This document shows positions 21,215-24,091 of a stretch of 64,000 nucleotides of DNA, piece after piece. Below the pieces are notes generated by a model. That model was not told the origin of the DNA, did no database searches, and saw only the letters and a list, made by a program, of their open reading frames with translations. Every line of letters begins with the position of its first letter. The stretch's first letter is position 1. The stretch is taken from the IMG/VR virus record IMGVR_UViG_3300027899_000008; one strand, given 5' to 3'. The position numbers and the translations under genes are program-made. The stretch comes from a virus.

Positions 21215-24091
21215 TTAAAACAAACCACTATAATTATCCATGTCTTTAATATGTAGATTAAGTGATATTTTGATATCTTTTTTATCTTGTATCAACCATC
21301 TGTCTACTCCATCTCCGGTCCAATTATCCTCTTCTTCTTGAATTGAGATGTCTTCAGAACCATCATCATAATATCCAAATGGCAGCAAATCATCTTCAAT
21401 CTTTTCGATTTCGCGAGAATACATCGCAAGACGAACATCCATATCGGTTAGATTCTTAAAGAAGTCCTGTCGTGTACACCAAGCAAACATTGTGAGGCAT
21501 GATACTAAATCGTCATTGTGTCCATCATCTGCTTCATAACTATTTTTTCTAGCAACGAATGTCGTTAATTCATTGATGATATCAAAATCTTCAATGATTA
21601 ATTTATCTTCTTCAACTAGATTCTTTAAAACTGCACATCCTACCTTTTTAGTAACTACAGATGCCTTCAATCCAAGATGATTTTGTTTTGCGCCACCAAA
21701 TCCTTCGGTGATGACCTGTCCTTTTCTTCCTAGGAAACTTGTCTTGATTATATGTTCATATTCCAAGTCAGTATGTAAAATATCAGCAACCTGAGAACCA
21801 ATGTCATTTATCTCAACCATAACATACGCATTGTTATACTTCTTGGCAACGGTCTTTATCATCGATGGGTATAGCAATGGAGATATTGTATTATTTCTAT
21901 ATGTAGCAACTATTCTGTAAGGAAATTGAGTGACATCAACGACTACGAATGCGCTATAATCCTTTCCCTGTCCCCGAGCAGTATCGACCGTTATGAAATA
22001 AATATGGTCGTGAGTCTTGGCATCTTCATTTTCCCGTATTGGTTCTTCATAAATGGTGAGTCCTTCCTTTGTTCTCAATAAGGGTTTGGAAAAAACCAGT
22101 GTGTGTAATTTTTGGGAAGATATGAGTGTATTGGATGAACCTACGAAATCGCACTCAAACTCGCTCTGAAATTGCTTTTCCGAAGTCTTGCTAATCATCT
22201 CTTGTTTCCACTTGTCTGTTCTAAGTGGACCACCTGGATATAATGGAACCTGACTCCAGTGAACTTCTACTGGAACATAACCATTTTGTTTGTTGATAGC
22301 ACCCTTCCAATAGTAATAGAACATATTCAACCCATTTGGGGTTGAGATTATAAACATCTTGGTTGATTGACCCGATGTAATCGTAGGATATACGGATGAA
22401 AAGAAGTCTTCGGCAATTTGAATGGGAATGTGGGCAAATTCATCGAGCAGGATACAATTGCTGATTCGAACTCCATTTGCATAATATGATGTGTGTTCTT
22501 CGACTTCCATCAAATCATAGACATCCACTACACCCCAATCTTCAACACCCAATACACAAACATCACCATCACATCCATCAACAAATTCTCCAACCCTCAA
22601 AGACATAGCAGAAACAAAACCTCTGTCTGACGACATTATTTTGTGATCCGATGTGCAGATTAGTTCTTCATTGTTTTCAAATGTTACTTTAATAGTTTTT
22701 TGATTTGGTGCTTTACTTATTCCGTGGAACTTTTTAAATCCTGTATGAGTAAGTACTTCCCATCTACCATCTTCGTCCCCTTGTTCCAAGCACCACCTTG
22801 TCGCTCTATTCGAGCAATCGCTGCTAATCGCATCTTCTCTTTTGCTTCGGGAGATCGTTTCATTCCACGATGCTTTTCTGCTGTCTTTCGAATTTTCTCT
22901 GGATTCTTGTTGATTTTGTCGGAGTGTTCTTTGGTCTTCTTTACTCCCTTGAGGAGTTTCGATATATGTTCCCCAAATTCCTTTGGCCGAATCATCCCCA
23001 ATAATCGACCTTTGTTCGCATCTGATATTTTCTTTCTTGTTGCTTCTGTATTTTTCTTGCCTTTGTGTCGCTCTGAAATTTTTTGCTTGGTTTCTTCGGT
23101 GTGTTTCATTCCTGTTCGCATTAGTCTTCTTGCTTCCGAATAGTTTTTCTTGACTTCCAACAAAGCACTCGGTGGTAATTTTACTTGGGTTCCCTGTCGT
23201 CCAGTTACCATCTTGTGATAAGCATGACACATCTTGGCCTTCTCTATTCCATCCAAGAAGTGCGGCAGAAGTCGATGTGCTAACAAATGTTCTCGTATTG
23301 TCAGAACTACTATGTTCGCCTTGATGTTTGCTCCACCCAATGATTTTGGAATTATGTGATGTTTCTCTGTTGATATCAAATCTACCATAACACGATTTTG
23401 CCCATTCTCCATAAGGGAAAAGTACCACTTCTTGTATTTGTTGTCTATCATTTCCATATTCATATATATGATTATGGTTATTTCTAGACGAGTTCGCATA
23501 TAACTCTCCGATGGTAGTGTGAATCACCTCATCAGTAAGTGTATTTTTAATTATCAGTTTACTATTAGCAGATATACAATTAAAGGAACCGCCACGAATA
23601 GCAGAGGAAGAAGTAGCACTTGCTAGAATCTTGGAACCATTCTCCAACATAATGGAACCTTTGTTCCATTCGACTACGCCCTGCTGTAACCATTTGGGAA
23701 GATATTCAAATGCCATCTTGATTCTGCTTAGAATTTCAATAGCGGTTGCTTGCTTATTTGCTAGAATCGCAACATTCACATTTTGATTAAATAGAACATA
23801 ATGAAGAAGATACGACCCAACCGTAGTTGTTTTTCCAGTTTGTCTTGGAAGTTTTCCAATTACGAATCGATTATCATGTAATGTCTTAATTAAAGATTCC
23901 TGATAATTATACATGTTGAAGGGAACTAATCCCTGATCGACAGCAACAATCTTAACATAATTCTTAATGAAATATATTGGGTCATTTGAGCATTTTATAT
24001 ATTCTTGAACTTGTTCTGGAGTAAATTGCTGTTGAACACCAACAGGTTTAAGATTTGGGTTACCTAAATATCCATCTTTATGTTTCGTCAT
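21215..24091 (-). CDS. gp17: Large terminase gp17 precursor containing an intein (584 aa after splicing)
   Basis: YLGNPNLK, PRQTGKT Walker A, ILLDEFAH Walker B, ISTPNG, nuclease VDTARG and DDLV motifs. Confidence 0.97.
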   Translation of the reverse strand: MTKHKDGYLGNPNLKPVGVQQQFTPEQVQEYIKCSNDPIYFIKNYVKIVAVDQGLVPFNMYNYQESLIKTLHDNRFVIGKLPRQTGKTTTVGSYLLHYVLFNQNVNVAILANKQATAIEILSRIKMAFEYLPKWLQQGVVEWNKGSIMLENGSKILASATSSSAIRGGSFNCISANSKLIIKNTLTDEVIHTTIGELYANSSRNNHNHIYEYGNDRQQIQEVVLFPYGEWAKSCYGRFDINRETSHNSKIIGWSKHQGEHSSSDNTRTFVSTSTSAALLGWNREGQDVSCLSQDGNWTTGNPSKITTECFVGSQEKLFGSKKTNANRNETHRRNQAKNFRATQRQEKYRSNKKENIRCEQRSIIGDDSAKGIWGTYIETPQGSKEDQRTLRQNQQESRENSKDSRKASWNETISRSKREDAISSDCSNRATRWCLEQGDEDGRWEVLTHTGFKKFHGISKAPNQKTIKVTFENNEELICTSDHKIMSSDRGFVSAMSLRVGEFVDGCDGDVCVLGVEDWGVVDVYDLMEVEEHTSYYANGVRISNCILLDEFAHIPIQIAEDFFSSVYPTITSGQSTKMFIISTPNGLNMFYYYWKGAINKQNGYVPVEVHWSQVPLYPGGPLRTDKWKQEMISKTSEKQFQSEFECDFVGSSNTLISSQKLHTLVFSKPLLRTKEGLTIYEEPIRENEDAKTHDHIYFITVDTARGQGKDYSAFVVVDVTQFPYRIVATYRNNTISPLLYPSMIKTVAKKYNNAYVMVEINDIGSQVADILHTDLEYEHIIKTSFLGRKGQVITEGFGGAKQNHLGLKASVVTKKVGCAVLKNLVEEDKLIIEDFDIINELTTFVARKNSYEADDGHNDDLVSCLTMFAWCTRQDFFKNLTDMDVRLAMYSREIEKIEDDLLPFGYYDDGSEDISIQEEEDNWTGDGVDRWLIQDKKDIKISLNLHIKDMDNYSGLF
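22457..23578 (-). mobile_element. Intein, 374 aa, in gp17 immediately before Walker B
   Basis: Starts with Cys (CISANSKL, block A) after GGSFN; block B CTSDH; block F VYDL; ends GVRISN; +1 residue is Cys of CILLDE. Excision restores IRGGSFN-CILLDEFAH. Confidence 0.93.
22717..23499 (-). CDS. HNH homing endonuclease with NUMOD3 repeats, overprinted in the +1 frame inside the intein
   Basis: EKHHIIPKSLGG.N...NIVVLTIREHLLAH HNH core; HTEETKQKISERHKG / NTEATRKKISDANKG / RSPEAKEKMR NUMOD3-like repeats; GGAG 6 nt before ATG 23499 (alternative ATGs at 23463 and 23457). Confidence 0.88.
   Translation of the reverse strand: MRTRLEITIIIYMNMEMIDNKYKKWYFSLMENGQNRVMVDLISTEKHHIIPKSLGGANIKANIVVLTIREHLLAHRLLPHFLDGIEKAKMCHAYHKMVTGRQGTQVKLPPSALLEVKKNYSEARRLMRTGMKHTEETKQKISERHKGKKNTEATRKKISDANKGRLLGMIRPKEFGEHISKLLKGVKKTKEHSDKINKNPEKIRKTAEKHRGMKRSPEAKEKMRLAAIARIERQGGAWNKGTKMVDGKYLLIQDLKSSTE

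Follow-up and report, generated by a model that had tools for sequence, protein, structure and literature searches.

A homing endonuclease gene that lies out of frame within a terminase intein of freshwater T4-like phages, and the codon footprint that keeps both frames open

Why does the reading frame of a large terminase gene stay free of stop codons across an insert that encodes another protein in another frame? The question is raised by the terL gene (T4 gp17-type large terminase) in a 64,000-nt stretch of viral DNA, IMG/VR record IMGVR_UViG_3300027899_000008, which is called the window here. The gene occupies positions 21215..24091 of the minus strand as one contiguous open reading frame (ORF) of 958 aa, intein included, identified from the ORF list, from Pfam (Terminase_6N, 1.4e-17, and Terminase_6C, 2e-16) and from extein identity, its C-extein being 52-54% identical to terL of Synechococcus myophages. 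Nested in it, one base out of frame with terL, is a minus-strand ORF of 260 aa (22717..23499) for a predicted Mob-type homing endonuclease with HNH and NUMOD3 domains. The locus is very probably a composite mobile element in the terL of a freshwater T4-like phage, consisting of a class-1 intein of the AceL/GOS/Cat-TerL family and a homing endonuclease carried as a separate gene in an overlapping frame.

Within the overlap, the third position of each HNH codon is the first position of a terL codon, and a terL-frame stop arises only where an HNH codon ending in T (NNT) is followed by a codon starting with AA, AG or GA. The frame geometry thus bears out what an earlier annotation made from the letters of this DNA (hereafter the sequence-only reading) had said of such junctions. 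The span to which it had assigned the effect, 22763-23497, lies inside the overlap of the two open minus-strand frames, and all the codon strings it had quoted as lacking T in dangerous spots are found in the HNH frame (CAC ACC GAA GAA ACC AAG at 23103, CAC AAA GGC AAG at 23067, TCC GAC AAA ATC AAC AAG at 22923, GGG GAA at 22974 and TCG AAA at 22962), as are its examples of T-ending codons in harmless contexts (CAT CGT at 22872, ATT CGA at 22893 and CAT ATA at 22968). Counted over the HNH ORF, none of the 56 codons that precede an AA, AG or GA codon ends in T, versus 47 of the 122 codons elsewhere (39%). In the same dangerous context, T-ending codons make up 44.8% in the window's other genes and 48.3% in 68 free-standing or split homologs. 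There is thus no general avoidance of T before such codons, and the footprint is specific to its context.

The terL frame contains 0 stops across the HNH overlap, and the third frame contains 25. When synonymous codons were resampled with the window's codon usage (taken from 40 other window ORFs, 18,533 codons), the terL frame acquired a mean of 26.6 stops (standard deviation 3.8; minimum 12 in 20,000 draws), and the exact probability of no stop was 3.8e-17. The ORF's own codon frequencies already take up part of the effect, and the outcome was still extreme (exact probability 8.5e-8); in 3,000 shuffles of the ORF's own synonymous codons, stops averaged 13.3 and never fell below 5. Neither chance nor composition can account for the lack of stops in the terL frame, in agreement with the sequence-only reading, which had judged it unlikely by chance and had proposed synonymous resampling as a check. 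Dynamic programming showed that synonymous choices can clear the terL frame entirely (minimum 0 stops), the other frame keeping at least 5; since synonymous choices suffice in the relative frame that terL occupies, stop avoidance costs the endonuclease nothing.

A scan of IMG/VR with the endonuclease returned 80 loci. The full-length loci L001-L012, with 44-99% endonuclease identity, and the fragment L027 likewise have 0 stops in the terL frame, and the enclosing ORFs are about 945-956 codons long, with matching N-extein, intein parts and C-extein. A later addition, L082, has the same nested layout, bringing the nested contigs to 13 further full-length ones and one fragment, from 13 metagenome samples. 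Among 13 nested sequences (the window and L001-L012), T stands at 0 of 734 dangerous junctions and at 694 of 1454 harmless ones, and the probability of an open frame, calculated with own codon usage for each of 14 nested loci, is 1e-7 to 1e-13. Homologs outside the nested group carry 13-69 stops in the corresponding frame (23-65 in the split relatives); none has it open, which is also how the comparison with free-standing homologs proposed in the earlier annotation turned out. Two technical explanations were considered and rejected: an assembly error or frameshift artefact, the layout being repeated in 14 contigs from 13 samples, and an in-frame HNH domain with compensating frameshifts, the other frame of the homologs being full of stops.

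These comparisons bear on the possibility that the terminase is functionally split, its halves being joined by trans-splicing as in AceL-TerL and GOS-TerL, and that the open frame is recent or incidental. Close relatives are indeed split at the equivalent site (L013, L014/L015 and L085-L087), the cultured coliphage kaaroe has two terL ORFs with the same kind of break, and trans-splicing is known in the AceL/GOS family (PMC11766414). For the window we nevertheless consider a functional split very unlikely, given that the frame is stop-free, at the per-locus probabilities above, in 14 loci whose HNH identities span the full 44-99%, and that the stops of the split relatives are the outcome to be seen once the constraint is lost. 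In the nested loci, moreover, no ATG is present that would let the C-terminal part of the intein be translated separately, whereas the split relatives have an ATG exactly there, so that in the nested loci the C-terminal terminase half would be made only by reading through the insert. The footprint, its conservation and the lack of an independent C-terminal ATG support the proposal of the sequence-only reading that the intein frame is translated through the insert, and the NNT-AA, NNT-AG and NNT-GA junctions would have been purged because an essential gene must be read through it.

The two frames differ in what selection preserves. Differences at HNH codon positions 1, 2 and 3 are 0.24, 0.19 and 0.48 between the window and L002, and 0.024, 0.020 and 0.114 between L004 and L007. 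Amino acid identity is 0.72 in the HNH frame versus 0.44 in the terL frame, and 0.50 versus 0.29 for more distant pairs; over the overlap, conservation is 30-44% in the terL frame where it is 50-72% in the HNH frame. It follows from this pattern that purifying selection at the protein level acts on the HNH frame, and that nothing but openness is maintained in the terL frame over the insert. From the position-3 bias, the identities and the fold predictions given below, the endonuclease is the selected protein and the terL-frame reading of its gene is a spacer.

The intein comprises 374 aa (1122 nt, minus strand, 22457..23578), from Cys172 to Asn545 of the terL ORF, and was delimited by Cys1, the TxxH motif (TSDH), the terminal Asn and the +1 Cys of the extein. 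It lies directly before the Walker B acidic pair, between ...RGGSFN and CILLDEFAHIP. The former ends the N-extein (aa 1-171, minus strand, 23579..24091) just upstream of the Walker B segment, as placed by translation, by the intein borders and by the break in alignments to intein-less terL; the latter opens the C-extein (minus strand, 21215..22456, from translation and alignments), which continues to the end of the ORF and in which the Walker B DE follows the +1 Cys. The class-1 intein residues Cys1, T309, H312 and N374, as well as the +1 Cys, are invariant among 11 relatives. When the intein was modelled in the terL frame with AlphaFold2 (AF2; 11 relatives), only its two ends folded, as beta-strands with predicted local distance difference test (pLDDT) values of 78-95. 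The first end, an IntN-equivalent of 30 residues (block A, CISANSK...IGELYANS, minus strand, 23489..23578; pLDDT 78-92), has a length that fits the IntN range of AceL/GOS-TerL. The second, an IntC-equivalent (aa 270-374, WEVLTHTGF...VRISN, minus strand, 22457..22771; pLDDT 82-95), contains blocks N2, B, F and G. Between them, the 239-aa hydrophilic read-through spacer (aa 31-269, minus strand, 22772..23488; hydrophobic fraction 0.23) has pLDDT below 50 and no secondary structure, and its terL-frame reading matched no Pfam or PHROG family.

These properties speak to whether the terL-frame reading could itself be a selected functional domain, so that both frames encode useful proteins. The frame is always open, and its alignment does contain a few conserved columns; these, however, are explained by conserved HNH codons, identity among relatives is far below that of the HNH frame, and changes fall on the frame's own first codon position. 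With no predicted structure and no family over its 239 residues, a functional domain here is highly improbable, and the spacer reading is retained.

Sequence searches matched the intein to the solved inteins 6DSL, 6VGV and 6QAZ. The best PDB match of its C-terminal 105 aa was 6DSL_B, 'Consensus engineered intein CatC' (E 2.2e-8, covering residues 5-101 of 105), and the match starts at the equivalent WEVLT/KVLT point. By sequence, the window intein is homologous to the atypical split inteins AceL-TerL, GOS-TerL and 'Cat' (Thiel 2014; Bachmann and Mootz 2015; Stevens 2018, PDB 6DSL; reviewed in PMC11766414), yet it is not itself split. In AceL-TerL and GOS-TerL the N-fragments span 25-37 residues and the C-fragment about 104 (PMC11766414), and the window intein resembles the family in its host protein, in its homologous C-terminal part and in the sizes of its parts, about 30 + 105 aa. 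Members of the split family are two polypeptides broken after about 25-37 residues, whereas the window terL ORF, intein included, is contiguous. The endonuclease gene therefore lies exactly at the break point of the AceL/GOS/Cat-TerL family, after block A and before N2/B, rather than between blocks B and F, where intein endonucleases usually sit.

The borders of the insert also have to be weighed against removal at the RNA level, that is, an intron carrying the HNH gene, for which the open frame would be irrelevant. A 154-nt contig of depth 2.5 from a lake RNA library is near-identical to the window's exteins, with one mismatch; it joins 22451 to 23574, with 8 ambiguous letters at the join, and thereby skips 1122 nt, exactly the length of the intein. 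Against an intron stand the lack of any matching intron family in Rfam, the protein-splicing residues at the borders together with the Hint fold, and the open frame, which an intron does not need and which is nonetheless kept at probabilities of around 1e-8 to 1e-17. Intein-less alleles exist, furthermore, as DNA in related phages: in L083 and L084 (72-80% nucleotide identity) the terL alignment stops at the intein borders and resumes after them, and the joined form is a single contig. An RNA intron is therefore extremely unlikely; the joined contig is most simply read as a population allele with an empty site, or as DNA carry-over into the library, and in nature such an allele seems to occur alongside the occupied one. 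Other short RNA-library contigs cover parts of the insert, with DNA carry-over possible; since such contigs hold no information on expression level, transcript ends or strand, transcription is not claimed, and gaps in their coverage carry no meaning.

The nested ORF is predicted to encode a Mob-type HNH/NUMOD3 homing endonuclease, on the basis of Pfam, PHROG 655, its homologs and an AF2 model; its activity and target are likewise predicted. NUMOD3 was found in two stretches (33.8 bits versus a cut-off of 20.4), PHROG 655, 'homing endonuclease', was matched at 1.7e-30, and homologs occur in 783 phage records, some of them annotated as mob-like homing endonucleases. H47, H48, H71 and H75 do not vary among 27 endonuclease homologs and N62 hardly varies, and the AF2 model built with these homologs has a mean pLDDT of 82.5. 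A PDB sequence search with the endonuclease gave no match, Foldseek of the model against the PDB gave weak HNH-domain rows only (best E 0.09), and a wide VIA-align search gave generic helical matches (Z <7); these weak structure-search results have no bearing on family membership. A Pfam HNH score under the cut-off and the lack of a match to a solved structure are what could be said for a decaying remnant, in which case the terminase frame alone would matter. The ORF is intact in 14 of 14 loci, however, with substitutions biased to its third position, its HH...N...H...H columns are conserved, and it has a confident predicted fold besides the PHROG match, so that decay is almost certainly the wrong explanation of what we read as a maintained endonuclease gene.

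As for the start of the endonuclease, a Shine-Dalgarno-like GGAGAG (minus strand, 23504..23509) precedes the first ATG of the HNH ORF (23499) at a distance of 6 nt, measured from its GGAG, and at the same time encodes the Gly-Glu of the intein's IGELY. The relatives share a start motif, ATG-GAn-ATG, whose counterparts in the window are the ATGs at 23457 and 23451. In the window RNA, a local hairpin over the endonuclease ATGs folds better than shuffled sequences (z -2.9), and RNAalifold on the start-site region of 8 relatives gave no consensus pairs and no conserved structure. As a side observation, the T4 late-promoter consensus TATAAATA stands a few bases upstream of the conserved ATG-GAn-ATG in several nested relatives, in the regions L003:2170-2190, L004:2870-2899, L007:2400-2429 and L008:4008-4037; at 23463-23492 the window has CATATATA in place of TATAAATA, in addition to the GGAG before the earlier ATG (23499).

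In the mechanism that we propose, ribosomes translating terL would read through the endonuclease gene in the other frame and produce the disordered hydrophilic spacer of 239 aa between the 30-aa N-terminal and 105-aa C-terminal parts of the Hint fold. These parts would fold together, and the whole 374-aa insert would be spliced out in cis, restoring the ATPase centre beside Walker B. The 260-aa Mob-type HNH/NUMOD3 enzyme would be made by internal initiation on the same message and would presumably cut intein-less terL alleles, with the intein and its endonuclease being copied in together; the existence of such alleles is circumstantial evidence for this homing.

Several points weigh against this picture. 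The Pfam HNH profile scores 18.1 bits, just under its cut-off of 21.4, and structure searches gave no clear solved relative for the endonuclease model. The endonuclease start is uncertain: the relatives, whose shared start lies further down, do not conserve the GGAG that stands before ATG 23499, and the conserved ATGs have no obvious ribosome-binding site. At the penultimate position of the intein the window has Ser, where most relatives have His. A free-standing gene dropped into an intein would bring about 25 stops with it, a difficulty for the origin of the nested state.

Broken and endonuclease-free versions of the locus show what the contiguous form can be compared with. L013 is a classical fractured gene, in which the N-extein and a 33-aa IntN end in a stop, a free endonuclease gene with 23 terL-frame stops follows, and IntC starts from an ATG of its own that overlaps the end of that gene. 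L013 fits the pattern of two host ORFs with a free-standing endonuclease gene between split-intein halves set out by Dassa et al. (2009; PMC2677866), who also described a gp17 locus as 'fractured at an unusual point'; the window does not have this arrangement. In L014/L015, N-extein, IntN and endonuclease share a frame and IntC lies in a different one, and terL is also broken in L085-L087. The coliphage kaaroe (cultured, RB49-like, MN850574, L161 745-3856) has terL as two annotated ORFs overlapping by 20 nt, a 583-aa 'hypothetical protein' with the N-extein, IntN and a Cys-rich endonuclease of another type, and a 459-aa 'terminase large subunit' with IntC and the C-extein. Kaaroe is an isolated phage, and its intein, which is inserted between IYIDE and C, is atypically split. 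The terL of Vibrio phage vB_VmeM-32 (KU160494, L162 1102-3216) contains a contiguous Cat-like mini-intein without an endonuclease; the related inteins of both phages lie six codons downstream of the window's insertion site. Separately, the annotated terL of vB_VmeM-32 starts inside what appears to be the C-terminal part of another intein (…NIASHN followed by TTVT, at the P-loop site).

The intein-associated endonucleases form one clade apart from the free-standing ones, with 97-99% support. FastTree placed the nested forms in one clade with the split lineages outside; IQ-TREE did not resolve the base and the inner branching of the intein-associated clade, and the trees give no order of events. 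We favour the nested form as the older or an intermediate state, because passing from nested to split takes one mutation, whereas the reverse takes about 25 stop removals with no benefit at intermediate steps. Under this order, the break point would be fixed by an out-of-frame endonuclease gene that had settled behind intein block A, a single nonsense or frameshift mutation in the frame read through would suffice to make a cis-splicing intein a split one of AceL/GOS type, and after the split the codon constraint would vanish and stops would accumulate, as in L013-L015 and L085-L087. That the contiguous dual-coding form is the missing link to the atypically split TerL inteins is put forward tentatively, as an idea to which we give somewhat less than an even chance.

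An endonuclease gene inside an intein but out of frame with it was reportedly described by Gorbalenya in 1998. The general kind of arrangement seen here is thus already described, although rare; the form found in the window is new. Actinobacteriophage inteins carry out-of-frame or antisense endonuclease genes, with terL among the hosts (bioRxiv 10.1101/2025.01.02.630785), and a cyanobacterial dnaX intein has the same frame-dependent pattern of selection (bioRxiv 10.64898/2026.09.14.751524). With the known inteins of this kind the window shares an endonuclease ORF off the intein frame, a host frame open across that ORF, stronger purifying selection on the endonuclease frame and an in-frame reading without recognisable structure. 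It differs from them in its Mob-type HNH/NUMOD3 enzyme, in the location of this enzyme after about 30 intein residues instead of between blocks B and F, in its host, the T4-like terL of freshwater phages, and in the availability of split versions for comparison.

A hidden HNH endonuclease of the ShiLan type, in a phage DNA methylase (PMC11855218), is likewise an out-of-frame HNH gene inside a stop-free host ORF; there, no splicing domain is present and the read-through peptide is retained, whereas in the window the gene is flanked by a complete Hint domain and its read-through product should be spliced out. Among the T-even Mob homing endonucleases is mobE, found in phage Aeh1, where it splits nrdA (Gibb and Edgell 2007, cited in PMC2677866). 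T-even Mob enzymes share with the window's the HNH plus NUMOD3 type and a site in or beside conserved T4-like genes; they are free-standing or gene-splitting, and none is known to be read through in a second frame, unlike the window's. In the published descriptions compared, we found no Mob-type HNH/NUMOD3 gene in an out-of-frame intein arrangement, no out-of-frame endonuclease at the point where the TerL intein family is atypically split, no persistence of a nested form across a diverged clade of freshwater T4-like phages, and no split, fused and endonuclease-free versions side by side.

The locus offers a clean natural case in which selection purely on the synonymous sites of one gene keeps a second frame readable, with the split relatives, free of the constraint, as a built-in control. 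It joins the literature on inteins with out-of-frame endonucleases to the atypically split TerL inteins of protein engineering and suggests a testable route by which the split site of an intein is set. The nested forms would provide the Cat/AceL inteins with natural relatives that splice in cis and accommodate a disordered insert of 239 residues at the split point. Gene callers usually miss the nested endonuclease or label the intein 'degenerate', and the case is relevant to research on inteins, homing endonucleases and overlapping genes.

In the window, which has a G+C content of 36%, packaging and tail genes stand in T4 order on the minus strand. A near-identity search of phage records with the window DNA gave no match, and near-identical DNA occurs in freshwater and lake metagenomes from at least 9 studies. 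Free-standing Mob-like HNH genes were observed directly upstream or downstream of intein-less terL in L019:3995-6186 and L037:298-2542, a layout consistent with the family having targeted terL before joining an intein. The terL of L085 (L085:1100-4712) apparently has intein-like inserts in three places, one close to the P-loop, one at the Walker B site and one within the C-extein, with frame changes between the pieces, and may be fractured several times. In L087 (L087:4097-5154), a further insert of ~1 kb lies in the C-extein between residues about 100 and 104 (window C-extein numbering), in addition to the split intein at the Walker B site.

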